The notes below the pieces were generated by a model. It had not been told where the DNA came from and ran no database searches. It saw nothing but the letters and a program-made list of their open reading frames with translations. Made by a program: the position numbers and the translations under genes. Below, piece after piece: positions 2,950-61,636 of a stretch of DNA of 64,000 nt (the first letter of the stretch is position 1; every line of letters begins with the position of its first letter). The stretch comes from an uncultured Microthrixaceae bacterium (GTDB taxonomy: Bacteria; Actinomycetota; Acidimicrobiia; Acidimicrobiales; Microtrichaceae). The stretch covers positions 320,402 to 384,401 of the forward strand of contig CAVQQI010000010.1 of NCBI GenBank assembly GCA_963714875.1. The letters run 5' to 3'.

Positions 2950-5370
2950 TCAGGTGGTCTCGCGGCGGCGGCGGAATCCGGTGAGCAGGAACCCGCCCAC
3001 CAGGAACGCTCCGGCAGCAGCCAGCAGCCCCAGGATCGTCAGACCGGTGTAGGCCAACGTCTCGGGCAGCGAACGCGCGGTGCCGGCGGCTCCGCTTCCC
3101 GCCGGTGTGGCGCTGCCCTGGGTGCGATCCGCCACCTCGATGATCTGGCCGCTGGCGCTGCCCGAGTTGTCGTCGGGGTCCGTCTCGTCGGTCGACGTGG
3201 TCGCGCTGGCGGTGTTCACCACGGACGACCCGCCGCCTTCGGTGACGGTGCCCGAGATGACCAGCTCTGCGGTGGCACCCGCCGGCAGCGGCGTCGACCG
3301 CTGACAGGTGACCCGACGAGCCACGACGGTGCAGTCGAACGACGTGCCGCTCGCGGTGACGTCGTCGAACACCGCCGGCAGCTCATCGGTGACGGTCACG
3401 TCGCTGGCAGCGGACGGGCCGTCGTTGCGCACCTCGATGCGCCACAGGCCCTCCTGGCCGACCGTGAGCTGGCCCAGCAGCGTCTTGGTGACGCTGATGT
3501 TGGCGAGCGGCACCACCGTGACGGTGTCCTCGTCGCGGTCGTTGCTCGGATCCGCGTCCGCAACGGGGGTCGACACCTCGGCGACGTTCGTCGCGTCGGG
3601 TTCGGCCGCGGGCGTCACGTCGACCTGGACCGCCAGTGCCGGAAGAGCATCACCGACCGCGAGCGCGGCATCGGTGCTGCAGGCGATGATCCGTTGATCG
3701 GTATCGGTCGAACAGGTCCACCCGTCACCCTCGGCGGAACGGAACTCGAGTCCGTCGGGCAGCGTGTCACTCACCGTGATCGGTCCCTCGGGCAGGTCGT
3801 TCGGACCGTTGTTGGTGACCGCCAGCGTGAACGACCCCGGTGCGGAGACCGAGAAGTCGCCCTCGTGGAACTTGTCGATCGCCAGGTCGACCAGTGGGTC
3901 GATGCGGACCCGGTCGTCGTCGGAGTTGTTCCCGGGGTCGTCGTCGAAGGTCGGTCCGCCCACCTGGGCGGTGTTGGCCAGAGTCGGGTCCTCGGCCCCG
4001 CGGTATGCGCCGGGGGCGACGTCGACGGTGACGGTGATCTCTGACGACTCGTCGACGCCGAGCTCGCCCTCGTGGGTGCAGGTGACGTCGGTGCCGCCGT
4101 CGTCAGCGGCGCAGACCCAGCCGTTGCCGGAACCTTCCGCGAAGCTCAGCCCGTCGGGCAGGGAGTCGGTCACGGTGATGGGACCCGACGCCAGGTTCGG
4201 GCCGTCATTGGTCACCACGAACGTGTACTCGCCGGCGGCACCGACCTGGAAGGCGTCGCCCTCGTGGTCCTTGCTGATGCGTAGATCCGCGACTGGCCGC
4301 ACCGGCACCGTATCGGCGTCGGCGCGGTCGACGTCGTCGGTGATACCCGCCGCGCTGGCCGAGTTGGTGACGGTGTTGGTCGCCATTTCCGGGTCGGGCT
4401 GTGGCGTCGGCGCAGCGGCCGGCAGGACCCGCACCGACAGCTCGATGGGGGAGAGCTCGGCGCCGGCGGCGAGCAGCACCGCGTTCTCGTCCAGCCCGGA
4501 CCGGTCGTGCACGCAGCGCACCGTCCCGTTGGGCCCGTTGCCGCCGCCGGTGCGCAGCTCGCACTCCCAGCCGCGGCCGTCGGCATCGCGGTACTCGAGG
4601 CCCTCGGGCAGGACGTCGGTCACGACCACACGGCCGTACTCGCCGGATGGCCCGTCGTTGCCGACCAGCAGACGGAACTGCTGGTCGCTGCCCACGGTCC
4701 ACGGCGCGCTGTCGGCGACGTGGGACTTGTCCAGCCGCAGCTGAGCGACTGGAACGACCGGGGTGTCCTCGGTGTCGCTGCGCTCGCGGTCATCCACGAC
4801 GCCGCGAACGGTCGCGGTGTTGGACACCAGGTTCGCCGCCCCGGGGCGGGGGTCGATCACCGCTGCGGGGTCGACGGCCACCTGCACGGTGACCATGCCG
4901 AGGGACTCCCCGACACCCACGGGGTCAGGGTCGGCATCTGCTCCGATCCACGTGCAGTCGAAACGGCCGCGGTCCCCGTCGCCGAAGCCGGTCCCGGCGG
5001 TCACGTCGCAGTCCCAACCCGGCGCATCGACCGAGACCAGGCGCAGGTGCGCGGCGATCCCGTCGGACAGCTCCACCGGGCCGGTCTCCACCGAGGGTCC
5101 GGTGTTGGACACCACCACGTAGTAGCGGGCGTCGTCCTGTCCGGCGCGGAAGGTGGCGTCGCCGTCCGACTTCGAGATGGTCAACCTGGCGACGGGATCC
5201 GCCGACGAGGACTTGTCGCTCGAGTCGTTGGCCGGATTCGGGTCGTTGGGATGGGTCACCTTCGCCACGTTGGTGACGGTCGCCCGGCCCGGTGTGGCGG
5301 GATCGATCGCCGCGGTGACGACGATGGCCGGGTACGTGCTCTGTGCAGGGCTGTCGGCCGCGGTGCGCAC
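2950..5370 (-). CDS. C-terminal part of a DUF11-repeat (conserved repeat domain) cell-surface protein with LAXTG sortase signal
   Basis: Repeated TVTNxGP...GPITVTDxLPxGL modules. C-terminus reads LPETLAYTG, then a hydrophobic helix, then RRRRETT (class-E sortase LAXTG-type anchor). It has no signal peptide and opens mid-repeat, so it continues ORF 5256..11312 in another frame. Confidence 0.85.
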   Translation of the reverse strand: MRTAADSPAQSTYPAIVVTAAIDPATPGRATVTNVAKVTHPNDPNPANDSSDKSSSADPVARLTISKSDGDATFRAGQDDARYYVVVSNTGPSVETGPVELSDGIAAHLRLVSVDAPGWDCDVTAGTGFGDGDRGRFDCTWIGADADPDPVGVGESLGMVTVQVAVDPAAVIDPRPGAANLVSNTATVRGVVDDRERSDTEDTPVVPVAQLRLDKSHVADSAPWTVGSDQQFRLLVGNDGPSGEYGRVVVTDVLPEGLEYRDADGRGWECELRTGGGNGPNGTVRCVHDRSGLDENAVLLAAGAELSPIELSVRVLPAAAPTPQPDPEMATNTVTNSASAAGITDDVDRADADTVPVRPVADLRISKDHEGDAFQVGAAGEYTFVVTNDGPNLASGPITVTDSLPDGLSFAEGSGNGWVCAADDGGTDVTCTHEGELGVDESSEITVTVDVAPGAYRGAEDPTLANTAQVGGPTFDDDPGNNSDDDRVRIDPLVDLAIDKFHEGDFSVSAPGSFTLAVTNNGPNDLPEGPITVSDTLPDGLEFRSAEGDGWTCSTDTDQRIIACSTDAALAVGDALPALAVQVDVTPAAEPDATNVAEVSTPVADADPSNDRDEDTVTVVPLANISVTKTLLGQLTVGQEGLWRIEVRNDGPSAASDVTVTDELPAVFDDVTASGTSFDCTVVARRVTCQRSTPLPAGATAELVISGTVTEGGGSSVVNTASATTSTDETDPDDNSGSASGQIIEVADRTQGSATPAGSGAAGTARSLPETLAYTGLTILGLLAAAGAFLVGGFLLTGFRRRRETT

Positions 5371-8300
5371 GCAGCTGACCCGACCGCTGCCAGAGGTGCG
5401 ACGGCACGCAGGCCGGCTGGGACCGAGTCGGTCACGACGATCGGCCCGGTGGCCGGGTCGGGGCCGGCGTTGCTGAGGTCCAGGTAGTAGTAGCCGGGCT
5501 GGCCGACGGTGAAGCCGGCGCTGTCGGGGGACCCGTCGTCGTCGGCCGAGGCGTCGGTCTTCAGGATCCGAAGATCGGCGCTGCGCAGCGTCGCAGCTGC
5601 GTCGTCACGGTCGCCGGCGAGGGCGGTGCCGCCGGCGTCGCCGCCGTCGACCCGGGCGTCGTTGACCTGGAGCACCTTGTCGCCATCCTCGTCGAGCAGA
5701 CCCGGTACCTCGGTCGCTGCGGGCAGCGGGGTGGCGGTGAAGCGCACCGTCACCGTCGAGCCCGGTGCCAGGTCGCACAGGTCGGTCCAGATGATCCGCT
5801 GCTGTGCGCCGCCGTCGACAGCGGTGGTCGACACGGGCGGGGTCAGCTGTCGCGGTTCGGTGCGGCACGCCGCGCCGGGTGCCGCGCTGATAGCGACCGA
5901 ACCGGTGTCGAAGCTCCAGTTGGTCGGCAGCGTGTCGGTCACATCGATGCCGTAGGCGGTGCCCTTGCCGGTGTTCGCCACCTCGAGGGTCCAGGCGAAG
6001 GGGCTGCCGACATCGGCATCAGCGACCTCTGTCCCGGCCCCGGTGAGCTTCTGGATCGACAGCTTCGGCAGGTACGTCGTCACGGTCGCATCGGCCTCAG
6101 GGCCCTCGTACTCCTTGAAGTCGTCGCCGTCGTGGGTCGGATCTCCCCAGAAGGTGGGGATCGCCGCGGTGTTGACCAAGGTGCCGCCGTCGTTCAGGGT
6201 GTCGGCAGCAGCGGCGTCGACGCGCTGCGCATACGTCAGCGTGCAGCTCGCCCCGGCGGGCAGGCCGTCGGTGCCGGCGAACAACGCCGGCCAGGTCACC
6301 ACACGCTCGTCGCGGTCGACCGTCGCGGCGTCGGAACCGATGCAGGAGCCACCGATGGAGTCCGGCGCGGACAACCCGGCCGGGTAGCTGTCGGTGGTGG
6401 TGATGTCGTACGCGGGGTGTGTCCCCGAGTTGGTGATCGTGACCGTGTAGGCCAGCCGCTGGCCTGCTTCGACGACGCGGTCGTCGTCGTCCAGGTCCTT
6501 CGCGACGGCGAGCACCGGCTCGACGACGGTGAGCTTCGCGGTTGCAGTGCGGCTGGCATCGAAGCCCTTGCCGGAGAGCTCGTCGACGTCGTCGAAGCGG
6601 TCGACCAGGTTCCAGTGCAACGTGGCGGTGTTGGTGAGCACGTCGCCCGCGACGGCGGCGGAGCCGACGGTCGCGGTGTAGGTCAGTGCGATGGTGCAGT
6701 CCCCGCCAACGGCGCGGAGATCGCCGAGGAACCAGCCGACGCGCTGACCCGATGCGGCGATGGTGTGGGGCTCTGTGCGGTCCACCTCGCAGCTGGCGTC
6801 GAGCGGCGTCAGTTCGCCGTAGCCGCCGAAGCGCAGGTTGGCGGGCAGGATGTCGATCACCGTCGCGTCGGGCACGGTGACGCCCTCGGGCACGGTGACG
6901 CGGATCGAGTAGCTCGCCTGGGTGCCGGGCAGGCGGGTGCCGGGGTCGACCGATTTGGTGATGGCCGGGGGTGCCACCTTGACGGTGTCCTTGGTGGATG
7001 CCGAGTAGCTGGTGCGCTCCCCCTTCACGTCGCCCGTGATGGACGAGCCCGTGACGGTGGCGGTGTTGATCAGCTCCGCCTCCGCGACCGCCGGGGCATC
7101 GACGCTGGCCGAGTAGGTGAGTGCGATGCGCTCGGAGGGCTGCAGGCCGATCCCGTCGGGCCGTGTCGCAGGATCTTCCAGGAGCTTCCGCAGATCCCAC
7201 CGCACGAGTGTGGCGTCGGTCGCGGAGGGGGACGTCCCCTCGCTGACGGTGGCGGTGCCGGCCAGCGCCCCGGTGGGTGTGACCCGCGAGAGGCCCGCGG
7301 GCACGCAATCGGTCACGACCACGTCGTGCAACGGCGGTCGCCCGGCGGTGTTCGCGACGGTCACGGTGTAGTCGACACGGTTGGTGCCGACGACGGTCGT
7401 GGTGGGCGTGTGGGACTTGGTGATCGACGGTTCGGGCTCGACCACCCTGGTGGTCGACCGCGACCTGCGGCTGCGGTCGGTCGACGTGGCGGTGTCACTG
7501 AAGCGCCAGGACAGCCGGGCGGTGTTGGTCAGGGCCGTTCCGTGACGGTTGGCCGACACGTCGGCGACGACGCCGACGTAGGTGATCGTGACGACCTGGT
7601 CCTCGCCCGAGGCGTTGTCGAAGGTGGCGGGCAGATCCAGGGTCCATCCCCGTCCGTCCTTGCGGTCCGACAAGGTGAAGCCCTTGGCGTCGACACCGCC
7701 CGGGAGCTCGAGTCGGGCGGACCCGGCGGCGTAGGAGAGGCCGGCAGGCAGCGTGTCCGCCACCGATCCCTTGTACAGCGTCGTGCCGGCAGCGATGGTG
7801 GCGCGCACCGTGTAGCGGACCTCCTCGCCGATGGTCGCCTGGCCGGTCGGGCCCGTGGTCGGCAGATTGTTGCTCGCCTCGACGATCGAGGTCACCCGGG
7901 TCTTCGCGACCTGGGCGTCGGGCAGTCGCACGAGTGCATCGTCGATCGCCGTGGGAGCGTTCGGGGCCACCGTCGGGTCGATGTTGGACTCGGGGAGGTA
8001 CTCGCCGGTCCCTGTCAGGTCCAGGTACGACCGCACTCCGGCGGTGTCGAGGTGCGACGACCCCGCCGCGGCGGTGTCGCGCATCCGTGCGGTGTAGCTC
8101 AGCTGCAGGTCGTAGCCGGCAGGAATCCGATCGACGATGACCGCCATGCGGGACGGATCGGTGGTGCAGTCGACCTTCAGCGCGGCGATCGGCGCGTCGG
8201 CGAGTGGGAGAGCTCCCGGTCGCAGCACCAGTGCCGAGGACACCTCGGGATAGCCGGCCTCGGGCTGCATGTCGGCGCAGCTGATCTCCGGCGGCAGGTC

Positions 8301-11086
8301 GTCCCAGATCTGCACGTCGAACGCGTCGGACGCCTGGACCTGCCCGTCGGCCCGCGTGATCCGCAGACCTGTGCGGAGGCGGTTCGCGGTCTGCGGCTCG
8401 GCGAAGTCGACCGTGCTGCTGGTGCGTCGCATCTCGTCCAGGTCGAGCAGCGGTCGGACGAGCGTGCGGGGGGTCTGGGTGGTGCGGGGACGCGTGAGCG
8501 CGACGTCATCGGACGGGTCGAACGGGTCGCGCCCGTTGTCGCGGAGCTGGACGCCGGTGTTGGCGACGTCCACCCGGTAGGTGACGAGGTCGCCCTGGAT
8601 AGCGGTGTGCGCATCGCGGCCCGCGGCGGGGTTCGTGCGCGGGTAGCCCTTCAGCGTGTCCTTGCCGCGTGTGATGTCCACCACGCCCTTGGTGAGCGAC
8701 AGCACCGGCTCGGCGACCTGGTACGGACTGAGCGCCCGGGGGCTCACCGTCGAGGCGCCTGCGGTATTGGCGATGGTGACCTTGAGCAGGTTCTGGTAGA
8801 GGTCGGCGTCGCTGTTGGCCCGGGGGTCGTTGGTGACGCGAGCACCCAGCACGACGTGGAAACGACCGCCCTCGGCGGGGGTGTAGCGGGGCTGGGTGCC
8901 GATCGGTGTGCCGTAGCTCCAGATGACGGCGTTGCCGTAGGACGGGACGACCTCGGGGGTGCCGAACTGGCCCGGCGTGTTGTCCGCGGCCTCGACCGCG
9001 CCGACGAAGGACGAGTTCGCAGGCAGGAAGTCGGTGATGACGACGTCGCGCATGCGGATGCCCGAGGGCAGGTCCACCGCCAGGTCGAAGCACACCAGGT
9101 CGCCGGGAGCGAAGCGGGGGCCGTCGGTGCCGGCGGCATCGTCGGGGTCGACCCATCCGGTGGCGCACTGTTCGCGGCCGATCTGCTGCGCCGCAGCGGC
9201 GGCGCCGCTCAGGGTCTGCTTCGCGACCGAGTACCAGCGCGAGCTCAGCGAGGCGCCCGAGACGTCGCCGACCTCGATCGGGGCGAGGCCGTCATCGCCG
9301 TTCACCAACGAGGTGGTGCCGGACAGGCTGGCCCGGTTCCGCAAGGTGTCGAACACCAGCACGGGCTGAGCGGTGGCGCGGTAGGTCTCGAGCGTCACGG
9401 AGTCGAAGCTCAGCTGCACGTCGCTGTTCACGCCGATGGTCGCGGGCAGCGTCCACTGCAGGGTCTGCACGCCGTCGGGTCCGTCGGAGATCTCCGGCTC
9501 GATCGGGGTGCGGGCGCCATCGACCGACACCGAGGAGGATGCGGGGCGGAACGCCAACCCGTCGGGCAGCTCGTCGGTCACGACGACCTTCGCCGCGTCG
9601 CGGTACTCGCCGGTCCGGATCGACAGGTTCCAAGCGGTCACGCCGCCGTACTCCACCCCGTTGCGACAACGGCCGGAGCCGTTGCCGTTGGCGACCGAGT
9701 TGCAGGCGGACTTCTGGATGGCCAGGTCCTCGATCACCACGGTCTCGGTGGCGCGGTCCCAGGTCTGATCGGGCGAGACGCCCGCGGGAACGCGACCGGT
9801 GTAGGCGCCCGCGGCCGAGACACCGTTGGTGGCGCTGCGCTCCGTGCCGCGCTCGGTCGTCGGGGCGCCGGTGTTGTTCGCCAGGTTCGCGACCTGTCCG
9901 CATGAGTCCGCACGGCGGCCACAGATCGGATCGGGCGCACTCGACACGGCCTCGACGGGAGCACCGGGCGCTGCGTCGGGAGTCGGAGCTTCGGCCGGTG
10001 TCTCGGGTTCGGCCGGGGTCTCGCGCGCTGTGGGCACCTCGGGCCAGAGCGCGTTCTCCCGCTCCGGGACCGCGGCGAGGTAGGTGATCTCTCGCGACGC
10101 ACCAGGGGCCAGGTCGCCGATCGTCCAACGCACGTGGGTGTACACGCTGCGGGGCAGTGGGCCTGCGCCGTCGGGATCGACGTCGACGGTCTCGACCCGA
10201 TCGGGGGCGATGCAGCCCTCCCCGGCATCCAACTGCCGCGCCTCGTCCAGGCGTGGAGCGCCGGGGTATTCCAGACCGCCGGGCGTGCTCGGGGTGTCCG
10301 GCGTGTTGTCGACGGTGCCGCAGCCCAGGAACTCCAGCTCTGCCGGCAACCAGTCCTCGACCGACACGGCGTTCGTCGGGGCCACCAGGTTGTTCTCGAC
10401 CCGCACCGTGTACACGGTGGGGCGGTGCGCGCCACGCAGCAGCTCGTTCTCGCTGCTGGGTTCGGATTTGGTCACGACCAACGGCACGATCGTGGTCGAC
10501 CCCGCAGCGGACGCCCGGTCCGTGTAGGAGTCCTTGCCGGGGACGGCGGTTCCGTCCAGGGCGAACTTGGTGATGAAACGGGGGTTGGTGTTGGCGAACG
10601 CCTCAGCGGTGCTGCCGACCTCGGCGCCGACGAACAGGGCCGAGTCGTCCTTGCCCGAGCTGTTGTGCGAGATGCGGTAGCCCACCGATGTCGACGAGCC
10701 GGGCTGGGCGTCGCTGATGTTGCTCCAGATCAGCGTGGTGGCGCCGGGGCCGGGTTGATCGGCGATGATGCGCGTCGGTGCGATGTCGGCCGAGCCGGCC
10801 ACATAGGTCGCTCCGGCGGGGACGACATCGCGGAAGCTCACGTTGAAGTAGCGCTGCAGCCCGGCATCGTCGGTCGACCAGGTGTTGTGCGCGGTCAGCT
10901 CGATCGAGGTCTCGTCGCCGTAGAGCGTGGATGCCGGCAAGGACTTGGTCAATGCCAGCGTGTCCTCGGGCAACGGCGCATCGGCCGACGCTGAGGCATA
11001 CGGCGGCAGCGCTGCTGCGCCAGTGGCGATCAGGGTCACCGCGGCGAGCAGGCGCAACGCAGGACTCGAGCGATGGTTGACCCGCA
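5256..11086 (-). CDS. N-terminal part of the giant DUF11-repeat surface adhesin (signal peptide plus >20 repeat modules)
   Basis: 2018-aa ORF. Signal peptide RLLAAVTLIATGAAALPPYASA follows a candidate GTG at 11086. Many DUF11-like repeats. Overlaps 2950..5370 at 5256-5370 in a different frame, which indicates a frameshift within one ~2,800-aa gene. Confidence 0.8.
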
Positions 11087-12900
11087 CCCGCAGGTCGTTG
11101 ACCGAGCGCGGCGCCACCGGCTCACGGCCGGGATCGGCCGCGGCGGGGATCCAGGCGGCTGCCCAGATGCCCATGAGGGTGTGCAGCACCTCGGGGTCCT
11201 CGTCGTCGAACGCGATGCCGAGGCGGTGGGTGCCATCGGCCAGCGCCAACGAGGACCGCACCGTGGCACGGACGCGAAGCGGGGCGGAACGGTCGATGGG
11301 CCGCAGCAGCACCGAGGTGCTCGAGCCGACCTCTGCGGGTTACGCGACGCGCACGCCCATGCCGAGCGGACCGACGTCCAGCACCTCGAGCTCGTTGCCG
11401 CCCATCTGCACCTGCAGCTGAGATCCGACACGCGCCGAGCCTCGGCGCAGACGCTGGGGGATGATCACGCCGATCGCCCGCAGCAGCGGGACCGACACCA
11501 GCAGTGCGCCCGCGAGCAGCGCCATCTCGACGTCGCGCGGAGGGTCGGCCAACGGCCAGCCCAGCACCGACGACAGGGCGCGCGTCGCCAGGGCGACCTG
11601 CACTGCGACCGTGGCGACGAACGCGATGCCCAACGATCGACCGGCACCGGTCATGGGCCGTCCCGTCACAGCTGTGGCGAGCGAGGCGACCGAGGCGTCG
11701 ATCTCCTCGAACGCGCCGCGCACGGTGGCGGCGGGTCCCAGGCGACGGTCGGACAGCTCCCAGCGGATCAGGCCAGCGGCGCCGTGCAGTGCCACGCCCG
11801 CGATCAGCACCTGCCAGACCTCGACGCTGAACGGCAGCTCGCCGCTCAGCAGTGAGGCCACCAGCACCGCGAGCACGCCCAGCGCGACGGTCCCGCGCAG
11901 CGTGTCCATCGTCCGAGCCAGCGCCGCGGAGCGCATCCCTCGGGGGAGGTTGCGGCGCAGCAGGGCGCCGGGGCCGGCGGCGGCGGCTCGCAGCCGGTCA
12001 GCAGCGGCGGCCACCGGCTCGACCATGCGACTCGACTCGTGCCCGTTCAGCACCGCCAGCGACGTCGGGCTCCACGCACCGCGCCAGCCCTGGGTGATCA
12101 GCTGGTCGCCCAGCTGCGCGATCGACCCGGCGTCCGGGTCGAGCTGGGTGAAGGCCGCGCGACGGACCACCGACGCACCGACCGACCACGCGGCGATCCC
12201 CCGTGCCGAGTCGGCGGGTCCCACCAGGTCGTTGTCGGTCGAGTCCACGACGTTCGCGTTCGGGAGCACTGGTGGACATCGACTGCACCCAGGCGACCCG
12301 GCTGTCACGGAACTCCAGCTCGGTCAGGGAGAACATCTGCTCGTTCGCGACCGAGTCCGAGGTCAGGAGTCCGATCAGCTCTGCATCCGTGGCGGCGAGC
12401 GCAGCCGCCACGAGGACGGGGAGACCGCCCGAGGCGTCCGACGGCCCGATCTGCGCGGTCACCCGAGCAGCACCGAGGTCCTCGGCCAACACGTCGAGGT
12501 CGTGTCCGACGGGGCCGACCAGCAACAGCTCGGTCCGGCGGTCCACCCACGATGCGCTGAGCAGTGCCATGCGCACACGTGCCGGCTCCTGGTCGGTCAC
12601 CAACACAGCGACTGCCCGGCCGGCTCCGCCGCCGCCGTTCGCGACGCGGCCTGGCTCACGCACGCCGGTCGTCACGTCGGCCCCGGTCGCGTCATCGGCA
12701 TCGTTCGCACCAGCCGGCGCGGTGCGCCGGAGGAACATGGCCAGTCGGATCAGGGCGAAGAGCTCAGCTGCCAGGAACGGCCAGAACAGCCAGGGGTTCA
12801 CTCCCTCGGCAGTGCGCGTGACGCGCAGCACCGCCCAGGCGACAGCAACGATCAGCAGCGAGGCGCCGAGCAGCGCCCGAGGATTCTTCGGAGGGTTCAT
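11036..12900 (-). pseudogene. cellulose-synthase-like GT2 membrane protein with possible C-terminal PilZ-like segment, split over three reading frames
   Basis: Frame A (12900->11998): N-terminal TM helices plus a GT2-like core (AVAVLVTDQEP...LLLVGPVG...DSVANEQ). Frame B (12308->11340): TM helices plus QRLRRGSARVGSQLQVQMGGNELEVLDVGPLGMGV, with RxxxR...DxGxxG suggesting PilZ. Frame C continues LALADGTHRLGIAFDDEDPEV. Catalytic motifs look degenerate and boundaries are uncertain. Confidence 0.5.
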
Positions 12901-18612: not shown

Positions 18613-18785
18613 AGCAGTTCGTTCTGGCGTCGGAGGGAGCTTGATGCCGCCGAACGCGTCCGTCCGGCCCACACCAGGAACAGCCGGCAAGTGTCACGTG
18701 GCCGATGATTCCGGCGCCGGCGTTCAGGCCGACCGACGAGGTGGCCACCGTGGTGTCGACGCCTGGCGTTGCATGTAGCGGACGT

Positions 18786-20161
18786 TCATCGCCATGCCGC
18801 CGAGCCTGCGGGGGCGACCTTGCTGGCGAACGAGGACGCGACCTGCGCGGCGGCGGTCGGCCCGCGGGCAGCCGGCTGGGCACGCGCCGAGGGTGGACAT
18901 CGTGGCGGCAGGTAGGTGCCGGCCGACGCCAGGAGGATCGGTACGAGCCAGTCCCAGTTGGCGTCCTTGACCTGGGTGACGATGCCGGGGAGGTCGGCGA
19001 ACTGCGGGATCAGGAAGTAGAAGACCGCCGCGAGCATGACGAGGGTGAAGATCTGCTTCGCGCCGAACCGGGTCACCGGCTCGAGTTCCGGCTCCTCGGC
19101 CTCGCAGCGCTGCTCGATCTCCGAGCGGACCTGTTCCAGCAGGCCCTTGTGGGCCTTGAGGTCGGTCTGGGTTGCACCGCTCAGGGCTGCGGGCTGAAGC
19201 CGACCGAGGCAGCTCGACGACGGCATCGGGCCCGAGGACCTCGATCGCGGGCGGACAGCGCGCTCTGCGCCGACCGCGACGGACAGAGGCGATCAGCTGT
19301 GCGACGTCCGCTCGCAGGAGTGTGTCGGATGCGGCGATCTCGGAGAACCCGAAGTCGATGAGCCACGGCTCGCCGTCGTCGGCGAGGAAGACGTTGGCCA
19401 AGCGGAGGTCGCGGTGTGCGATGCGGTACTGGCGGAGCATCGCCACCTGCTCCCAGAGGCCCACCAACACGTGGTCGGTGAGCTGGTCCTCGTCGACGCC
19501 GTCGAGCGAGCTGCCCTCGATGATGTCGTAGCAGAGCAGGAACGAGTCGTTGCCGACGGGTGCCACGCAGCGCAGGCGCGGCGTGCGAACCCGATGTCGC
19601 GCGCCTGGAGCGCGACCAGCGCCTCGTGCTCCACGGTTCGGCGCAGCGACGAGAACGGCCGCTCGTCGCCGACGTTGCGCAGGTGGACCATCCGGTAGAT
19701 CCGGAACAGCAGGTCTGCTGCCCGCTGGTCGGCGCCGAGGACCTTCGCGAACACTCGACTGCCGTCGTCGAGCGTGGCGAAGTAGGGAACCGAGCCACGT
19801 GCATCGACACTCGCCGGGTGAATTTCGGCGACCGGGATGCCGCTCGAGCGCAGCGCATCGATGATCGAGGAGAGTCGCGGTCGCGTGGTCGGTCGACCGA
19901 ACGCGAGCAACACGGCCGAGCCGATCGTCGCGACACGAACAGCACCAGCCCACGTGGGTCGAGGTGCCGAGGCCACACGAGGCGCATCACGATCATCGCG
20001 GTGACGGTCAACGCCCGGCTCGGCGCCACCGACGGCCGACGAACGGTGAGATCGTCACGAACGCCGCCACCAGGTGGGCGGACCCGACGACATCCGCGGT
20101 GACCCTCTCGCAGCAGCCTCTGTGGACGCGACCGACCACGACCGCGATCGACCACGACCAC
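18786..20161 (-). pseudogene. Kdo/WaaP-RIO-like kinase domain fused to a flippase-like (UPF0104/MprF-type) TM domain; frameshifted and C-terminally truncated
   Basis: Kinase motifs HRDLRLANVFL...PWLIDFGFSE sit in one frame. The N-lobe (VFAKVLG...) is in a second frame. The TM region LIPQFADLPGIVTQVKDANWDWLVPILLASAGTYL is in a third and stops after ~140 aa. Confidence 0.5.
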
Positions 20162-22051: not shown

Positions 22052-22843
22052 TCAGAACACCGTCGCGATCGTCGTCACCGTCACCACGGAGAAGAACGCA
22101 GATCCGACCGCGAATCCCGTCCACCTGACGGGTCGACGCTCGGCGAGTTGCGCGACGGTGTAGGCGACGACCGAGACGAGGAGCAGCAGTGTCGCCAGCC
22201 GGAGGCCCCGCACCCGGCTGCGGGTGTCGTCGGCCTGGTCCGCCCATCGCTGGGGGTCGAGTTGGCCGGCTGAGGCGATACCCGTCGTCGCCTGCGCCTC
22301 GAGGGTCGCGATCTGGTCATCGATGTCGAACGGCTGCGGCTGGTCCGACGCCGTGACGACTTCGGTCAGCAGCGTCTGTTCACCGAATACCCCCGCCGCC
22401 GCAGCCAGCTCTGACGCCGAGAGCCTCAGCGTGTCGGCGTCATCGGAGAAGCTGGCGGCGAACGGGTCCTGTTGTTGGGCCTCCAACTCGTCCGCGATGT
22501 CGTCGAGCGCAGCCGCTTCGGCGTAGTCGGCCACGTAGCGGACGTAGGCGACCGCATCGTTCACTGCCGTCAGGCTGACTTCGACGTTCTGCTCCTGCTG
22601 CTGGATCGTCTGGCCGACCGATTGGCGATCCTCGAACGCTGCGCTGGAGCCCAGCTGGCCGGCACGCCAGGTGAACAGACCGGCGGTCACCGTCACGACG
22701 CCGATCAGCAGCGGCACCAGCCAGACCGGAATGACCCGGCGTCGGGAATCCGGTCCGCTCCCGTGACCGGTGTCGCTGTCCTGGCCCGGTTCGCTGTGCT
22801 CATCCGTGTTGTCGTCGTGGCTCATCTCGCTGTCCTGGCTCAT
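22052..22843 (-). CDS. hypothetical membrane protein with acidic N-terminal tail
   Basis: 263 aa with TM helices near both ends. An 18-bp x3 tandem repeat spans the start codon. Confidence 0.55.
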   Translation of the reverse strand: MSQDSEMSHDDNTDEHSEPGQDSDTGHGSGPDSRRRVIPVWLVPLLIGVVTVTAGLFTWRAGQLGSSAAFEDRQSVGQTIQQQEQNVEVSLTAVNDAVAYVRYVADYAEAAALDDIADELEAQQQDPFAASFSDDADTLRLSASELAAAAGVFGEQTLLTEVVTASDQPQPFDIDDQIATLEAQATTGIASAGQLDPQRWADQADDTRSRVRGLRLATLLLLVSVVAYTVAQLAERRPVRWTGFAVGSAFFSVVTVTTIATVF

Positions 22844-22874
22844 CTCGCTGTCCTGGCTCGTCTCGCCGTCCCGG
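22821..22874. repeat. 18-bp tandem repeat x3 (CTCATCTCGCTGTCCTGG; third copy has 3 mismatches)
   Basis: Read directly in the sequence. Encodes SQDSEM repeats at, and just upstream of, the start of the 22052..22843 gene. Confidence 0.6.
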
Positions 22875-24526
22875 GCGGTCGTGTGTCCGACTGGCCATCA
22901 GCCGCCGATGCCGCGGGAGCAGCAACCCCGATGGGACCCTCGCGGTCTCGGGTCGGTGACTCGCTGGGAAGGTCCCGGGTGAAGGCGAGCGAGATCAGCG
23001 CCAGCAGCGCGGCGGCCAGCAGCCCGGCCTTCAGCGCCTGGATCTGGGCCTGCTCGTAGTCATCGACGATCGCCGCGCTGGTCGCGTCGTCCAGCCCGGC
23101 GTCAGCGGCGGCGGTGGCGATCTGGTCCGAGTCCACGAAGTCGATCCCGCCCCCGACGGCGACCCCGACCTGTGCCGCGATCTCGTCGCTGATCCGAGGG
23201 TCGTCCTCGATCCTGTCGACGAAGACCCCGGTCAGCCCGGCCAGCACGATCGCGCCGATGAGCGCGACACCGAGCGACGACCCGAGCTGCTGGCCGGTGT
23301 ACTGCAGGCCCCCGGCCTCTCCGCGTCCGGATGCGTCGACCGAGGACTGCACCACGTTGCCCAGCTGGGACACGATCAGCCCCATGCCGATGCCCAGCAC
23401 GGCCATGGAGATGGCGAAGCCGGACTCGCCCAGGTCGGGCTGCACCGTGGCGAGCAGGGCGAGCACGGCCACCACGGCGGTCACCAGTCCGCCACGCACG
23501 ATGGTGCGCACCGGACCACCGTGCTCGACAGTCGGGAACCAGCGGCCGAGGCGAGGAACATGGTGATGGAGACCGGCAGCATCTTGATGCCCGTCTCGAG
23601 CGCATCCAGGCCCACCACCAGCTGCAGGTAGAGCGGGATGACGAAGAAGACGCCCATGAGGATGAGGTTCTGGGTGAACAGGCCGATCAGTCCGGACCGC
23701 AGCGGCGCGATCCGCAGCAGTGCCAGGTGCACCAGCGGATCGGCACCGGAGGACTCGCGGTGGCGCTGCCACTGGACGAAGCCCCACAGCAGTACGCCGC
23801 CGCCGGCGATGACGAAGATGGTCAGCGAGAAGCCGAACGGCTCCACCGGGGAGTCCTTGGGCACCACCCACCCCCAGGTGCTGGACTGCAGCGTGCCCAG
23901 CACGACCGCACCCAGACCGGTCGCAGCCAGGATGCTGCCCACGACGTCGAGTCGGGGTGCGGTCGCCGATGCGCGGTGCGTCACCGATGAGGCGGGTCAT
24001 CGCCAGGATGAACAGCACCAGGACGACCTCGCCCACGAACACCACCCGCCACGACAGCTCGGTGGTGGCCCAGCCGCCGAGGATCGGTCCGATGGCGATG
24101 CCGGCGCCGGCGACGCCGCCGATGACCGCGTAGGCGACCTTGCGTTCCGGACCCCTCGAAGTTCCCGGCGATCAACGCTGCCAGTGCCGGCAGCACCAGC
24201 GCAGCGCCGATGCCTTCCAGGATCGACCACCCGAACGCCAGGACCGCGACCGATGGTGCGACGGCGGTCACGGCCGAGCCGCAGGCGTAGATGACCAGTC
24301 CGACGGTGAAGGCCGTGCGTCGGCCGATGATGTCGCCGATCTTGCCGCCGGTGAGCATCAGCATGGCCATCACCAGGCAGTAGAGCGTGATGACGCCCTG
24401 GATCGTGGTGACGGTGGTGTCGAAGTCCTCGACGAGCTGACTGATCGACACGTTCATCACGGACTGATCGAGCACCATCACGAACTGAGCGGTCCCCAGC
24501 GCCACCAGCGGCCACCACTTCTTCAC
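22840..24526 (-). pseudogene. MFS transporter, DHA2 (EmrB/QacA-like, 14-TM) family, split over three to four frames
   Basis: N-terminus KKWWPLVALGTAQFVMVLDQSVMNVSISQL...GRRTAFTVGLVIYACGS. The central part (23481..23984 frame) and C-terminal part (22840.. frame) continue the same transporter. Frame breaks fall near 24160, 23990 and 23520. Confidence 0.7.
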
Positions 24527-24647
24527 GGGTGCACCTCGTCGTGTCCTGTCCTGTCCGTGTCGCCGCCCGGGGCGATCTCGTCGGCGAACACTAGCGACGG
24601 CGGCGCCGAACCACGATACCCAGCGTGGCTCACGCCAGACTGGACCG

Positions 24648-25840
24648 GTGGCGACCCCGGAACCAGCCGACGGCATCGAGTTGCAGCAGCGGACCGAGAA
24701 GTGGTTCGTGCGACGTGGGGTGCCGCACTTCATCGACCGACTACAGCGCCTCGGAGGACGTCTTCACCAGGGCCTGGCCGGTGCTGACGTTCATCTTCGT
24801 GCTCGAGACGGTCAGCGCCGTGTCCGACGACCTGCCGGCCTGGGCCAACGTCGCGGCGGTGTTCACCGGCGTGGTGTTGGTGGTCGCAACGCTGGCGTTG
24901 CTGAATCGCGCACGGGCACGGCCCTGGTATCGGCGTCCCGACACGATCGGCCTGCCCGAGCTGGCTGCCTTCGTGCTGGTGCCGCCACTGCTACCGCTCC
25001 TGTTCGGCCTGGACGCGGCGACCGCCGGCGTGACGATCGTGTTCAACCTGGTGGTGCTGGTCGTCGTGTACGTCGTGGTGTCGTACGGCCTGTTGCCGAT
25101 GACCGGCGTGGGCCGTCGCCCAGTTGTTCCGTCAGTTCGCCAACGTCGCGAACCTGATGATCCGTGCACTGCCGCTGCTGTTGATCTTCACCATGTTCAT
25201 GTTCGTCAACGCCGAGATGTGGAAGGTGGCCACCGACATCCCCGGCGACTTCTACGCCGCGGCGATCGTGCTGCTGGTCGTGACCGGATCGTTGTTCATG
25301 GCCATCCGGCTGCCCCGAGAGGTGCACGATGCAGGGTCGTTCGGCGAGTGGAGCGAGGTCCGGGGCTACCTGGCCGACACGCCCCTCGAGGCGACTGGCA
25401 TCGACGGACTGGCGGAGCCTCCGGTGACGCCCACCCAACACCGTCGCTCCCGGTTGAACGTCGGTCTGCTGTTCTTCACCGCGCAGTCCATCCAGATCGC
25501 CTTCGTGACCCTGGCCATCTTCGTGTTCTACGTGATGCTGGGCATCCTGATCGTCAGCCCCGACACCATCGCGCTGTGGACCGGGGACCAGTCGCCCGGA
25601 GTCGTCGCGGAGTTCACCCTGTGGGAGAACGACATCGTGCTCACCGGGGCGCTGCTGCGGTGCGCAGCGTTCATCGCCGCCGTCGGAGGGCTCCAGTTCA
25701 CGGTCTCGGCGCTGACCGACACGAGCTACCGCAAGGAGTTCGTCGAGGAGAACACCGCAGAGATGCGCAAGAACTTCGCGGTGCGCGCCGTCTACCTGGC
25801 GCGGTTCGCCCAGACCGGACGTGCCGCCGAACAGGTGTGA
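24648..25840 (+). CDS. hypothetical polytopic membrane protein (frame-interrupted)
   Basis: N-terminus VATPEPADGIELQQRTEKWFVRRGVPHFIDR in one frame, TM segments in a second frame (24625 ORF) and in a third (25124..25840). Consistent with one gene carrying two frameshifts. Confidence 0.5.
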
Positions 25841-28043: not shown

Positions 28044-30623
28044 TCAGCTGATGGTGGTGGTGCTCAGCACCGGGTTGACCTGGGCGTAGCAGCGGGAGTT
28101 CGACGTGACCGAGCCGAGCAACGGGATGCCGGTCACCCGGGTCTGGAACGTCAGCGACGGATCGCCGTAGGACACGCCGCCGTACTGCGTCGTGATGCTG
28201 GTACCGACCGGACCCGAGGCGGTCAGGGTCACCGTCACCTTGGGCAGCACCGCGGTGACACCCGGAGCGAGCGTGCCCGGCACCACGAGCAGCACGTCGT
28301 CGTCGTTCTGGCCGACGGTGATCGTCCCGGTGCCCAGAGCGCTGCCGCCGCTCCACTCGGCGCCGACGAACGACGTGCCGGTGGGGATCTTGAACCGGAC
28401 GTTGACGTTGCCGAGCCAGGCGATGGGGTAGCCCTCGCCGGAGGTGGGCACGTCGATCGGGTCGGGCGTCAGCTCGATCTGGAACGTCGAGCCCTGGGCG
28501 ACCGAGGTCGGGGCGGTGACCGTCGCACCCGTCGGGTTCGCGTTGATGCGTGTCTGACCCGACGCCGTCGTCTGACACGTCTTGGCGACCGCGGTGTAGG
28601 TGGTCGAGGTGGGCGCAACCGTGGTGGTCGTGCTCGTGGTGGTGGTCGTCGGCGTCGTGCTGGTCGGTGCACCGGTGACGCCGTTGTCCCAGCTGCCGAG
28701 CTGCAGGCCGACCGCACCGGGGTTGCCGGTCGGGCCGGCGTTGCCGGCACCCGCCGAGGCGCCGTTGCCGCCGTCCTGGGTGCCGGAGCCGCCGGTGCCA
28801 CCAGCACCGGGTGCGCCCCCTGCGCCGCCCGGACCGCCGATCGCGGCCGGAGCCGCGGTGAGCGAGCTCCCGGTCAGCGACATGGAGCCGATGCCGAGGT
28901 GCAGCGCCGCGATGGACGGGCCGCCTGCGCCACCACCCGCACCGCCGCCGGCGCCGCCGGCGCCACCGCCGCCTCCACCGCCGCCGCCACCGGCGAGGCA
29001 GCAGGACCTGGTGCCGCCGTTGCCGCCGGCGCCGCCGTTGCCGCCCTGACCGCCGGCCTGGCCGACGCCGCCTGCGCCGCCCGAGCCTGCGATGATCTCG
29101 ACGCCGGTCAGCTGCACGGTCGCGTCGTAGCTGTAGGCACCGAAGGACCCGCCACCGGCGCCGCCGCCGATGGTCGCTGCGGCACCGCCGAGCCCGCCGC
29201 CGCCACCACCGCCACCGCCACCACCGGAGGCCGACGCGGACTTGCCGCCACCGCCGCCGCCCGCACCGTTGCCGGCCGAACCGGCGGTACCGGCCGCGCC
29301 GCTGGCACCGACGTAGGACTCTGCGCCGCCCGGGGCGTTGGGGCCGCCGGCGCCGGGTGCGCCCGCCAGGCCCGCCGGACCGGCCGCGCCGCCACCGGCG
29401 TCGGTGCCGCACCCGAAGAGGCTGCCGCAGCCGCCGTTGCCGCCGGCTGCTCCGGTTCCGGCCGTGCCGGCGGAGCCGGAGCCGCTGTAGTCGCCGCCGC
29501 GTCCACCGGCGCCCGAGACGGTCGGGGCGGGGCCTGCGCACCCGCTGCCGCCGTTGCCCGGCGACGAGGGTCCGCCGGCGTTGCCGCCGCCGGATCCGTT
29601 GCACGCCGCGGGCGGTGCCGGCGGCGCTGCGCCGCCGGATGCTCCTGCGACGCCGTCGGCGGCGGTCAGGGAGCCGCCGGTGACGCTGACGATCGCGCCG
29701 TTGACCGCTCGCAGGCCGTAGGCGCTCGCGCCCGCGCCCGACGGCGTGCCGCTGGCGATGTCGGATGCCTCGATCGAGACCGTCGACGGACCGTTCACGA
29801 ACAACCCGGTGGCATCGGCGCCGCTGGCCCCACCGTCGACCTGGACGCTGTCGAGGGCGAGGCCGGCACCGGTACCGCTGACGTGCAGGCCGAACGCCGG
29901 CCGGGCGTTGCCCGACTCGTCGCCGCCGGCGGCGCGCAGGCCGGAGATCGTGGTCGGTGCGGCGACGTCCACCGCGATGATCGCTGCGGACACCCCCGCT
30001 GCGCCGTCGAAGCTGCCGGTGACCCGGGTCGTGCCCGACGCTCCGAGGAAGTCGTCGTCGTAGCCGCCGAGCACGTCGACGCCGGGCAGGACACGGAACG
30101 CTCCGTAGGTGCCGTCGGCGATCCGCAGCTGGAACCCGCCGGTCGCCTCGGCGCGGGCGAGGCCCTGGGTGATCGACGCGCACGGTGCTGCCAACTCGCC
30201 ACAGGTCCCGGAGTCCGAGCCGGCATCGTCGACGAAGACCACGCCATCGAGGTTCTCCATGACCTCGATGACCTCGGTCGCGGAGCCGGTGGCGCCGCCG
30301 TCGTCGGTCACCACCAGGGTCACCGTGTAGCTGCCGGCGGCCGCATACTCGTGTGATGTCTCGACGCCGGTCGCGGTCGTCCCGTCACCGAAGTCCCAGG
30401 CGTAGCTGGCGATCGTCCCATCGGAATCGGTGCTGCTGGCGGCCGAGAAGTCGACCTGCAGCGGCGCAGCGCCTGCGGTCGGCAGGGCCGACACGACGGC
30501 GATCGGCGACAGGTTCGTGCCGGTGCCACCGCCTCCGCCCGGGGTCGGAGCGGTGCAGGCCGCTGCAATCAGCAGGAGTGCCGCACCTGCACACAGCAGT
30601 GCAGTCGTCCGGTGTCGCAACAT
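28044..30623 (-). CDS. secreted (possibly lipo-) protein: PKD domain + long Gly-rich PGRS-like region + Thr-rich linker + C-terminal beta domain
   Basis: Signal MLRHRTTALLCAGAALLLIAAAC. PKD motif YAWDFGDGTTATG...YTVTLVVTDDGG. About 350 aa of GGAGGxG repeats, then a TTTTSTTTT linker. Confidence 0.8.
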   Translation of the reverse strand: MLRHRTTALLCAGAALLLIAAACTAPTPGGGGGTGTNLSPIAVVSALPTAGAAPLQVDFSAASSTDSDGTIASYAWDFGDGTTATGVETSHEYAAAGSYTVTLVVTDDGGATGSATEVIEVMENLDGVVFVDDAGSDSGTCGELAAPCASITQGLARAEATGGFQLRIADGTYGAFRVLPGVDVLGGYDDDFLGASGTTRVTGSFDGAAGVSAAIIAVDVAAPTTISGLRAAGGDESGNARPAFGLHVSGTGAGLALDSVQVDGGASGADATGLFVNGPSTVSIEASDIASGTPSGAGASAYGLRAVNGAIVSVTGGSLTAADGVAGASGGAAPPAPPAACNGSGGGNAGGPSSPGNGGSGCAGPAPTVSGAGGRGGDYSGSGSAGTAGTGAAGGNGGCGSLFGCGTDAGGGAAGPAGLAGAPGAGGPNAPGGAESYVGASGAAGTAGSAGNGAGGGGGGKSASASGGGGGGGGGGGLGGAAATIGGGAGGGSFGAYSYDATVQLTGVEIIAGSGGAGGVGQAGGQGGNGGAGGNGGTRSCCLAGGGGGGGGGGAGGAGGGAGGGAGGPSIAALHLGIGSMSLTGSSLTAAPAAIGGPGGAGGAPGAGGTGGSGTQDGGNGASAGAGNAGPTGNPGAVGLQLGSWDNGVTGAPTSTTPTTTTTSTTTTVAPTSTTYTAVAKTCQTTASGQTRINANPTGATVTAPTSVAQGSTFQIELTPDPIDVPTSGEGYPIAWLGNVNVRFKIPTGTSFVGAEWSGGSALGTGTITVGQNDDDVLLVVPGTLAPGVTAVLPKVTVTLTASGPVGTSITTQYGGVSYGDPSLTFQTRVTGIPLLGSVTSNSRCYAQVNPVLSTTTIS

Positions 30624-30905
30624 CTCTGTTCCCCCGTTCAGCAACGCCCTCGCCATCGAGCGTCGGCAACCTTGTAGTTGCTGACTCGGAGTCAACGCAA
30701 GCTCCGGGCACGGGGGGGGGGGCGCGGCGCGGCGGTCGCCCGGCCGGGCAGCCCGACCGTGCTCGCCGTAGCGTGCCGGACGTGCCAGCAGAGTTGGTCG
30801 GGAGCAGGTGCCGCGCCGGCCGTCGCAGATGCCCGCGGGCGTGTCCGCTCGCCGACCCGTCGACGGTGCGCAGGTGCTGAACCGGCGGGCGCGCCTGGAC
30901 CGAGG

Positions 30906-40458: not shown

Positions 40459-41189
40459 CGGGCCACCGCCCGCCCGGGGCGCCCGTCGCCACCCTCGGTC
40501 ATCGGCTCGGGCGCCGGCTGGTGCATCCCGTAGCCCACGCCGCGCACGGTGCGGATCCTGTGGATCCCCGGCCGATCGATCTTGCGGCGGAGGTTGGCGA
40601 TGTGGACGTCGACGACGTGGTCGTCATGGATCCAGTCATCGCCCCAGACCCGCTCGCACAGCGCCTGTCGTGACAGCACCCGGTCGGTGTGCTCGCTCAA
40701 CGCGTCGAGGATCGCGAACTCGATCCGGGTCAGCGGCACCTCGTCGCCGTCGACGGTGCACCGGTGCGCTGCGGGTTCCACGACCAGCGTGCCGATGCGG
40801 CGCTCGGCCGACGTCCGGGCGCTGCGGTCACCGCGACGCCGCATCATCGCCTCGACCCGGGCGAGGATCTCCCGGGGTGAGTACGGCTTGGTGACGTAGT
40901 CGTCGGCGCCGAGCTTCAGGCCCAGCACCTTGTCGATCTCGTCGTCGCGAGCCGTCAGCATGACGACGAACGCGTCGGAGAACGTCCGCAGTTCGCGGCA
41001 CACATCGGTGCCGTCCATGTCGGGGAGACCGAGGTCCAACAACACGACGTCGGGGCGCAGGGCGCTGGCAGCGGTCAGGCCCGCGCGGCCGGTCGACGCG
41101 GAGCTGGTCTCGAACCCCGCGCTGCGCATCACCGCCGACGCGAGCTCCGCGGCGTCCGGTGCATCCTCGATGATCAGCACGCGCGTCAT
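40455..41189 (-). CDS. OmpR-family response regulator (REC + winged-helix)
   Basis: MTRVLIIEDAPD...VVLLDLGLPDMDG...VVMLTARDD...YVTKPYSPREL. wHTH region VRGVGY. Its stop overlaps the hybrid-kinase start by 4 nt. Confidence 0.9.
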   Translation of the reverse strand: MTRVLIIEDAPDAAELASAVMRSAGFETSSASTGRAGLTAASALRPDVVLLDLGLPDMDGTDVCRELRTFSDAFVVMLTARDDEIDKVLGLKLGADDYVTKPYSPREILARVEAMMRRRGDRSARTSAERRIGTLVVEPAAHRCTVDGDEVPLTRIEFAILDALSEHTDRVLSRQALCERVWGDDWIHDDHVVDVHIANLRRKIDRPGIHRIRTVRGVGYGMHQPAPEPMTEGGDGRPGRAVAR

Positions 41190-42677: not shown

Positions 42678-42723
42678 CTCCTTGCATCGGCTCGTACCGG
42701 GGCGACTTGAGCAACCCGCTGCA

Positions 42724-43818: not shown

Positions 43819-43966
43819 GTCGGCGGCACGTCGGCGGTGCGACAGCGGTGCGGTGGATCAGCGGTGGGTGTGGCGGGAACCGGGGCGATCAGGGACGCCT
43901 GATCAACGTGGTGGGCCCGGTGGGGCGGACGAGCCGCCCCACCGGGCCTGGGTGTGTGCTGGGAGC

Positions 43967-61614: not shown

Positions 61615-61636
61615 GGTGCCGACCGCCCTCGGATCG

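Follow-up and report, generated by a model that had tools for sequence, protein, structure and literature searches.

A giant gene joining a BcsA-like PilZ module to a LAXTG-anchored adhesin, probably inactivated by three lesions, in an uncultured actinobacterium

Organization of the locus

We analysed a stretch of 64,000 nucleotides (nt) from an uncultured Microthrixaceae bacterium (assembly GCA_963714875.1, contig CAVQQI010000010.1, positions 320,402 to 384,401), hereafter called the window. Its minus strand carries, from 12900 to 2950, what we read as a recently inactivated single giant gene, ancestrally of 3,482 codons, that has been cut into four open reading frames (ORFs) by three independent lesions; we assign this reading a probability of roughly 0.8. 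The adhesin part of the gene is covered by two minus-strand ORFs, 5256..11312 (2018 amino acids, aa) and 2950..5370 (806 aa). An original prediction, made from the sequence of the window alone, had described an overlap of 115 nt between them in different frames, DUF11 repeats in both, and a LAXTG anchor on the downstream ORF, which would lack a signal peptide and begin inside a repeat. All of these points are borne out: the overlap by the ORF list, the repeats by Pfam (PF01345, five times per piece), and the anchor by LAYTG followed by a transmembrane segment and RRRR; the downstream ORF has no signal peptide and does start inside a repeat. The two ORFs were also correctly proposed to form one gene, as evidenced by a CLIPPER domain (the present name of DUF11) that is split between them, colinear full-length relatives and a single ORF in the syntenic metagenome contig L008. 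The part considered in that prediction reconstructs to 2,711 aa rather than ~2,800 aa, and its proposed start near 11086 does not hold, as the open frame runs on upstream through PilZ coding sequence to a start at 12900. The features of the gene are, in the direction of transcription:

12256..12900, minus strand: 5' part, N-terminal transmembrane helices and first half of a BcsA-like glycosyltransferase (GT)-fold domain, native to ...AWVQSMSTSAPER (12256), from a frame plot of GC content at third codon positions (GC3) and tblastn
12252..12255, minus strand: lesion 1, GAAC in place of one codon (P0064 ...SAPERDVLH...), a 1-nt insertion, from three-frame translation and tblastn
11343..12251, minus strand: rest of the BcsA-like module (degenerate GT core, transmembrane helices, first half of PilZ), within a single tblastn high-scoring segment pair (HSP) of P0019 and of P0064
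11453..11430 and 11378..11361, minus strand: PilZ motifs RxxxR and D.G..G, respectively, from the motif table
11340..11342, minus strand: lesion 2, in-frame TAA inside PilZ where L008 has GAG (Glu), VRVA*PAEV versus VRVAEPAEV in L008
11088..11339, minus strand: second half of PilZ and conserved linker (...LMGIWAAAWIPAAADPGREP...), taken by the original prediction and the gene caller as an adhesin 5' leader
10983..11087, minus strand: signal-peptide-like hydrophobic segment VRVNHRSSPALRLLAAVTLIATGAAALPPYASASA, ending LPPYASASA/DAP, conserved in all fusion relatives
5400..10982, minus strand: adhesin ectodomain, with a non-repetitive N-terminal region, a Cna-B-like domain and CLIPPER/DUF11-type repeats to ...VTDSVPAGLRAVA, from Pfam and colinearity with P0064 and L008
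5397..5399, minus strand: lesion 3, junction of a 499-nt (3x166+1) deletion with GCA microhomology, breakpoints in L008 at 6513-6515 and 7012-7014
5256..5396, minus strand: end of the upstream ORF read out of frame (47 nonsense codons, then TGA), with native CLIPPER sequence in the other frame
3058..5397, minus strand: C-terminal CLIPPER repeats in the shifted frame, with the second half of a hybrid repeat (...TSGSGRVSCVRT...), five complete repeats and a Gly/Ser/Ala-rich spacer
2953..3057, minus strand: cell-wall sorting signal, LAYTG at 3057..3043, hydrophobic segment and RRRRETT tail at 3042..2953

In the public annotation, the downstream fragment (P0001, 769 aa) is called from GTG 5259 and so overlaps the upstream TGA (GTGA, 5256-5259). 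This overlap mimics translational coupling and is a by-product of the frameshift.

Intact orthologues

The ancestral state is seen in intact relatives. Contig L008 (metagenome Ga0105045) is ~85% identical to the window at the nucleotide level and syntenic with it through the downstream gene; its corresponding region is one uninterrupted ORF of at least 3,164 aa. Apart from lesion 3, the indels between the two sequences over ~9 kb are in frame, and no other uncompensated indel occurs in the ~11.2 kb that can be compared. The protein P0064 (3,458 aa) is encoded identically on four contigs from at least three sample accessions, and it matches the window at 54-55% identity over 12876..12253, 12275..5403 and 5388..2953, that is, in three frames. 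No synteny of the window with the intact P0064 locus was found. P0019, a more distant orthologue from an Actinomycetota metagenome-assembled genome (MAG), is likewise a single ORF, in which a multi-pass membrane module is followed by PilZ (30.4 bits), the signal-like segment and the adhesin. It aligns as a single HSP through the TAA of the window.

A 499-nt deletion between the adhesin ORFs

Compared with L008, the window lacks 499 nt between two GCA triplets, a 3-nt microhomology. The deletion runs from the middle of one CLIPPER repeat to the middle of the following one. A matching gap of ~150-160 aa is seen against P0064, P0056 and P0040, and residues 2477-2631 of P0064 have no counterpart in the window. 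In the three-frame translation, the upstream frame makes sense only to ...VTDSVPAGLRAVA and the other frame from TSGSGRVSCVRT... on, and the GC3 frame plot places the switch between 5420 and 5370. Aligned with the five downstream repeats, the junction repeat is missing both the GW.C segment and the first cysteine of a conserved pair. The upstream ORF encodes its conserved Lys and Asp, the downstream ORF its Asn.

The lesion is thus an out-of-frame deletion at 5397-5399, one of three in the gene, and not the single indel near 5260-5370 that had been proposed; the frame switch sits ~27 nt upstream of the 115-nt overlap. A single-base indel within the overlap was rejected, as protein sense, the GC3 plot and the orthologues agree on 5397-5399 as the switch position. 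A programmed frameshift was also rejected, for want of an X XXY YYZ slippery site and because of the 166 missing codons. The original prediction further suggested a sequencing error in a repetitive gene or slipped-strand phase variation. The repeats are too divergent at the DNA level for an assembly collapse of near-identical copies (best matches of 27-72 nt at 62-85% identity), and sequencing error is accordingly an unlikely cause. For slippage, neither a homopolymer longer than 4 nt nor a tandem repeat was found within ~200 nt of the junction: the sole run is CCCC at 5463 and the nearest tandem repeat lies at 5630. A 499-nt deletion is, moreover, irreversible.

Upstream extension and two further lesions

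The gene starts at ATG 12900 (MNPPKNPRALL...), ~1.8 kb upstream of the adhesin part and with GAAGGA 8 nt upstream of the ATG. Its first ~600 codons encode a complete BcsA-like fold with PilZ, joined in frame to the adhesin via the signal-peptide-like segment. Residues 10-203 of P0064 match 12876..12253 (tblastn, E=5e-33), and residues 11-261 of P0019 also align to this 5' part. At lesion 1, the frame switch in the tblastn alignments falls between 12253 and 12275, and the GC3 plot shows the coding frame changing at ~12270.

Lesion 2 leaves the frame unchanged. The ORF 11340..12323 ends in this TAA, the downstream sequence continues in the same frame, and both sides read as one PilZ-type domain; the alignments of P0019 and P0064 pass through the stop, and the coding signal is unbroken across it. 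Because domain and coding signal continue in this way, the stretch from 11312 to 11087 is not a leader. When the 499 nt are restored and the 1 nt removed, the frame arithmetic closes exactly: (9948+499-1)/3 = 3,482 codons.

A signal-peptide-like segment is present at 11087..10983, as the original prediction had it for the upstream ORF, but it is internal in the ancestral protein. Stand-alone adhesin relatives start exactly there, with an N-terminal signal peptide to which the segment is homologous; the segment is modelled as an extra helix after PilZ. Among relatives, the hydrophobic segment ends in a conserved LPPY..AxA/A motif.

Probable recent inactivation and its alternatives

The age of the lesions was judged from the ratio of nonsynonymous to synonymous substitution rates (dN/dS). 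Between the window and L008, at a dS of ~0.45, this ratio is 0.17-0.21 on every segment of the gene (0.165 for the downstream piece) and 0.18 for the neighbouring gene. Values of 0.17-0.21 on all segments therefore point to purifying selection on the whole gene until recently, and on this comparison the dead-enzyme module and the 'orphan' C-terminal piece would also have been under purifying selection until then. As expected of a pseudogene, the gene carries disabling lesions, namely the TAA and the 499-nt deletion relative to the intact syntenic orthologue in L008 and the frame switch relative to P0064 and P0019. The anchor-bearing fragment in the window has no export signal, and the exported fragment, if made, has no anchor; from its sequence, the gene would be dead.

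Several observations weigh against a real inactivation in the organism. The lesions are all read from the assembled sequence, and L008, belonging to a different species-level lineage, shows the ancestral state only. Lesion 1 is outside L008 coverage and is placed by relatives at 41-54% identity only, and a local consensus error is a real possibility for this 1-nt change. The PilZ domain of the window, with the stop replaced by X and the match spanning the TAA, scores 21.4 bits against the PF07238 cutoff of 22.5. Close relatives of the host, an uncultured Acidimicrobiales-like actinobacterium, are mostly known as MAGs, and at least four other genes of the window are frame-broken, some of them several times. 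An artefact would mean that the organism has an intact gene, and that the deletion, the stop and the 1-nt insertion stem from sequencing, a low-coverage or long-read bin, or a chimeric join. Such an artefact would be in keeping with the clustered frame switches of the other genes (at least four in a kinase-like gene, at least two in a major facilitator superfamily (MFS) transporter, at least three in a helicase, one in a membrane protein), with one switch in the kinase-like gene that resembles GGGG -> GGG, with the 'contig_N' names of most of the related MAGs, and with a stand-alone homologue in a 4.3x contig that is likewise frame-split inside a CLIPPER repeat. Nevertheless, the loss of 499 nt with a 3-nt microhomology is atypical of consensus error, the low identity of the repeats speaks against collapse, the TAA differs from GAG at two positions, and ~11.2 kb aligned to L008 contain no other uncompensated indel. 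The frame breaks also fall in 5 of 44 window genes, where ~9.6 would be expected at random (P ~0.001). Such clustering is more readily explained by genes in decay than by uniform error, but dips in local coverage could produce a similar picture. We therefore consider an artefact unlikely, but by a margin that leaves it worth bearing in mind.

Other explanations accept the lesions and differ in what becomes of the pieces. In a variant of the inactivation reading, and one compatible with it, an internal start at GTG 11087 would yield a secreted, unanchored adhesin fragment of 1,943 aa that retains some function. This GTG directly precedes the canonical signal-like segment, at the very point where stand-alone homologues begin, it is GTG in L008 and ATG in P0019, and the 5.7-kb ORF behind it has no further lesions. 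On the other hand, no Shine-Dalgarno-like sequence lies upstream of it, the GTC of P0064 shows that the internal start is not a conserved feature, and the fragment would end in 47 out-of-frame residues within half a CLIPPER domain unable to form its isopeptide bond. Continued use of this kind is decidedly unlikely. Function of the pieces as they stand, either as separate genes coupled through GTGA 5256-5259 or as a single product of programmed frameshifting or stop readthrough, is very improbable. The gene caller does start the downstream piece at GTG 5259 over the upstream TGA, and the dN/dS of this piece is low, but a recent inactivation explains that ratio in a comparison spanning a dS of ~0.45. 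The first 38 codons of the downstream piece, together with the codons before them, are native mid-domain sequence; its LAYTG cannot reach sortase because there is no signal peptide; and frameshifting, for which there is no slippery site, could not restore the 166 missing codons. In other bacteria, genes for giant surface adhesins are classic contingency loci, and with a homologue also broken in frame within its repeats, reversible phase variation through a slipped-strand tract that toggles the adhesin deserved consideration. It has next to no chance here: the site has no tract, two further disabling lesions lie upstream, and the size of the deletion refutes it for the 12900..2950 locus.

We thus favour a genuine and recent inactivation. 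The frame break is an ordinary gene-inactivating deletion, of importance mainly for annotation: the four called ORFs belong in a single pseudogene entry and should not stand as separate hypothetical proteins.

Adhesin domains and wall anchor

Pfam assigns the repeats to PF01345 with E=8e-53 and 9e-61, five stretches in each case and well beyond the cutoff of 24.6 bits, and places a Cna-B-like pilin domain in the upstream ORF (7832..7509). The renamed CLIPPER domain is a CnaA-like stalk domain with a Lys-Asn isopeptide bond and a catalytic Asp (bioRxiv 10.1101/2025.04.25.650565). The repeat alignment shows invariant K, D and N and paired Cys, with K5, D49 and N102 the same in all six C-terminal repeats. 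The three residues occupy the expected places of the triad and may correspond to Lys715/Asp748/Asn806 of the solved domain.

The ectodomain (5400..10982) is colinear with P0064 at 54% amino acid identity and with L008 at 84-86% nucleotide identity, with no net frameshift relative to the latter. The piece 3058..5397 has 55% amino acid identity to residues 2632-3458 of P0064 and 85% nucleotide identity to L008. In the N-terminal region of the adhesin, the window (9949-10042) has ~84 nt, or 28 codons in frame, more than L008 (1945-1954). The extra codons form a Pro/Ala/Glu-rich linker (...ETPAEPETPAEAPTPDAAPG...), which is consistent with rapid length change in low-complexity spacers.

The downstream ORF ends in ...LPETLAYTG, a 22-residue hydrophobic stretch LTILGLLAAAGAFLVGGFLLTGF and RRRRETT, followed by the stop codon at 2950-2952. 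Class E sortases of GC-rich Actinobacteria have LAXTG as their motif (PMC8225981), and the order of LAXTG, hydrophobic segment and positive tail is that of a class E sortase substrate. An export signal is absent from the anchor-bearing ORF 2950..5370 and present in the reconstructed gene, in L008 and in P0064.

The wider family

An exhaustive search of representatives with the N-terminal module found 131 proteins, 35 of them at least 1,000 aa long. The long fusion representatives include proteins of 3,229, 3,361, 3,362, 3,458 and 5,415 aa, and several of these long proteins carry LPXTG- or LAXTG-type C-terminal signals. A word-indexed homologue search with the reconstructed upstream module found nothing, and a scan of a collection of species-representative genomes with a two-sequence alignment of the fusion gave no match, so the source genome is not one of those representatives. 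In their source records the proteins go by the bare name 'uncharacterized repeat protein (TIGR01451 family)'. P0064 has no start codon ahead of the hydrophobic segment (GTC stands at the position of GTG 11087 in the window), so its adhesin must be made as part of the fusion. About 20 stand-alone adhesin homologues have the classical layout of signal peptide, stalk and anchor. At two loci of such homologues, no adjoining separate GT2-PilZ gene, as an operon precursor of the fusion, was seen.

Two side observations concern these relatives. A fusion subfamily of ~1,600-1,800 aa (P0043, P0046-P0049, P0052, P0053) ends in L[AL]G[YFV]GG, a transmembrane segment and RRR.GW instead of LPXTG/LAXTG, an ending that may act as a modified sorting signal or simply as a membrane anchor. 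The stand-alone homologue P0034 (1,774 aa) is frameshifted inside a CLIPPER repeat (L006 11211-11325; ERZ2648042 NODE_1268, 4.3x coverage), and a 644-aa ORF with a LAFTG anchor overlaps its stop by 4 nt. Broken frames are a recurrent feature of such giant repeat genes across assemblies, be it from error or from biology.

A BcsA-like fold without catalytic motifs

Pfam gave no matches for the N-terminal pieces of the window alone, and the homology of the module is visible only through relatives, profiles and structure. A phmmer search ties the module to GT2+PilZ proteins. Two of four distant stand-alone relatives tested (P0063, P0072) have weak PF03552 cellulose-synthase matches near or below the Pfam cutoff, and the family profile matches BcsA with E=1.4e-10. 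The AlphaFold (AF2) model of an intact relative (confidence scores pLDDT 84.9 and pTM 0.84) superimposes on BcsA (4p00_A) with a TM-score of 0.73 (E=6e-22, 663 columns).

The catalytic motifs that define BcsA are D, DxD, TED and Q(Q/R)xRW (PMC8892547). At these positions the window has LVG, TSDS, AGS and AAAAD, so that the catalytic motifs are absent. They are also absent in all 12 fusion proteins examined, with Q..RW missing in every one, and retained in full by the stand-alone relatives P0060, P0067 and P0072. Four stand-alone GT2-PilZ proteins of ~620-720 aa (P0057, P0061, P0075, P0080) also lack Q..RW and other catalytic motifs. Degenerate BcsA-like PilZ proteins thus exist without an adhesin, and P0057 has a similar hydrophobic segment after PilZ.

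The ligand motifs of PilZ are R-GSA-R and D-V-G-P-L-G (Gly for Ser) in the window, and RxxxR and [D/N]xSxxG are kept in all fusion relatives. The PF07238 scores of intact relatives are 30.4 bits for P0019 and 24.5 bits for P0041. The annotated ORFs of the window yielded neither a sortase gene nor a gene for a cyclic di-GMP (c-di-GMP) enzyme; a housekeeping sortase is commonly encoded elsewhere in the genome.

Other genes in the window

Frame breaks were noted in four further genes. A kinase-like gene with a possible flippase-like C-terminal part (18724-20054, minus strand) has at least four frame switches within ~500 nt (about 19200-19700); one frame holds only positions 78-152 of the Pkinase profile, and the switch of the GGGG -> GGG type lies near 19590. 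An MFS transporter (22843-24763, minus strand) is spread over three frames, so that at least two frameshifts are implied, at about 23480-24170; one ORF matches MFS_1 profile positions 3-116, another 126-264 and a further one the rest. A membrane protein at ~25095 (plus strand) is frameshifted at ...SYGLLPMT / AWAVAQLFRQ.... In a RecD/TraA-like helicase (60018-61705, plus strand), AAA_30 is cut at profile position 148/191, SH3_13 is in the next frame and the C-terminal motifs are in a third, with the breaks at about 60800-61350; the breaks at this right end of the window suggest a decaying mobile element.

The remaining genes of note seem intact. They include a cluster (40455-43253, minus strand) in which a histidine kinase and a response regulator accompany a protein with an H-NOX (HNOB) domain. 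A 695-aa hybrid kinase (38536-40623) adjoins this cluster, and a signal peptidase S26-like gene (42727-43857) and a camelysin M73 gene (43970-44629) come after it. Another large protein of surface type, 953 aa long and with a PKD domain, is encoded at 28044-30905 (minus strand), a region to which some adhesin homologues also align weakly by tblastn through their C-terminal parts.

Comparison with known systems

The adhesin part resembles Gram-positive fibrillar adhesins with CLIPPER/Cna stalks (bioRxiv 10.1101/2025.04.25.650565) in its tandem PF01345 domains with Lys/Asp/Asn, its Cna-B-like domain, its signal-like segment, and its LAYTG, transmembrane segment and Arg-rich tail. The family described here (at least 35 cluster representatives) differs in the ~600-aa BcsA-like and PilZ module ahead of these elements in the same ORF, which makes the 'signal peptide' internal; the copy in the window is, in addition, disrupted. 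With BcsA (PDB 4p00, 4hg6, 9fmv; PMC8892547), the module shares a fold over ~660 aligned positions that comprises transmembrane helices, the GT-A domain and the C-terminal PilZ barrel. The likeness extends to sequence-profile homology and to the retained RxxxR and DxSxxG-type motifs of PilZ. By contrast, D, D, the D of TED and Q(Q/R)xRW are absent in the 12 of 12 fusion proteins, no BcsB partner gene was found nearby, and an extra transmembrane helix and a giant extracellular protein follow PilZ. The module is not to be filed as a cellulose synthase.

A link between c-di-GMP and the display of large adhesins is known from LapA/LapD/LapG of Pseudomonas, and from LPXTG adhesins under riboswitch and PPEP-1 control, namely CD2831/CD3246 (C. 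difficile) and Cap (B. thuringiensis) (PMC4933901, PMC6200980, PMC8225981). The Gram-positive examples, CD2831/CD3246 and Cap, are sortase substrates, as is predicted here. In all of these systems the sensor is a separate protein or RNA element, whereas the PilZ receptor here, as read from the sequence, would be covalently part of the adhesin precursor. As a pseudogene, the locus is like others that arise in large repetitive surface-protein genes, with multiple lesions (frameshift, nonsense, internal deletion) and intact neighbours. There is no mechanistic difference from such ordinary cases; only the identity of the lost gene is unusual.

Proposed architecture and significance of the intact family

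Sequence and structural model suggest that the intact gene encodes, in order, a dead BcsA-like fold, PilZ, a linker with an AxA/A signal-like helix, a ligand-binding N-terminal region with a CLIPPER/Cna stalk, and LAXTG. In such a protein, the PilZ-bearing pseudo-synthase would be embedded in the membrane with PilZ in the cytoplasm, forming a c-di-GMP sensor in cis on the adhesin precursor. The helix after PilZ (N-in, C-out, with positive charges before it) would carry the chain outward across the membrane. Signal peptidase is predicted to cut after AxA, and a class E sortase to join the LAXTG C-terminus to peptidoglycan. Binding of c-di-GMP could then control export or release of the adhesin in cis. 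We infer the cleavage by signal peptidase, the anchoring by sortase E and the regulatory role of c-di-GMP from motifs.

It is tentatively proposed, as a possibility that we rate at well below even odds, that the intact family consists of sortase-anchored isopeptide-stalk adhesins whose precursor contains a pseudo-enzyme, derived from cellulose synthase and with a working PilZ, and that this pseudo-enzyme gates export, signal-peptidase release or surface retention of the adhesin in cis in response to c-di-GMP. A search of the available literature library on PilZ with LPXTG, isopeptide or fibrillar adhesins found no description of this fusion architecture, and the joining of a dead cellulose-synthase-like, predicted c-di-GMP sensor to a wall-anchored adhesin is apparently an undescribed variant of known parts.

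It is the lost gene that is of interest here and not the lesion, as it belongs to a conserved family under purifying selection in uncultured Actinomycetota. If the proposed gating is true, the family would represent direct post-translational control of a Gram-positive wall-anchored adhesin by c-di-GMP. Should the fusion function in the way its anatomy implies, it would offer a compact and testable system for the coupling of c-di-GMP to Gram-positive surface attachment, and a case of a polysaccharide synthase turned into a regulatory scaffold in the membrane.

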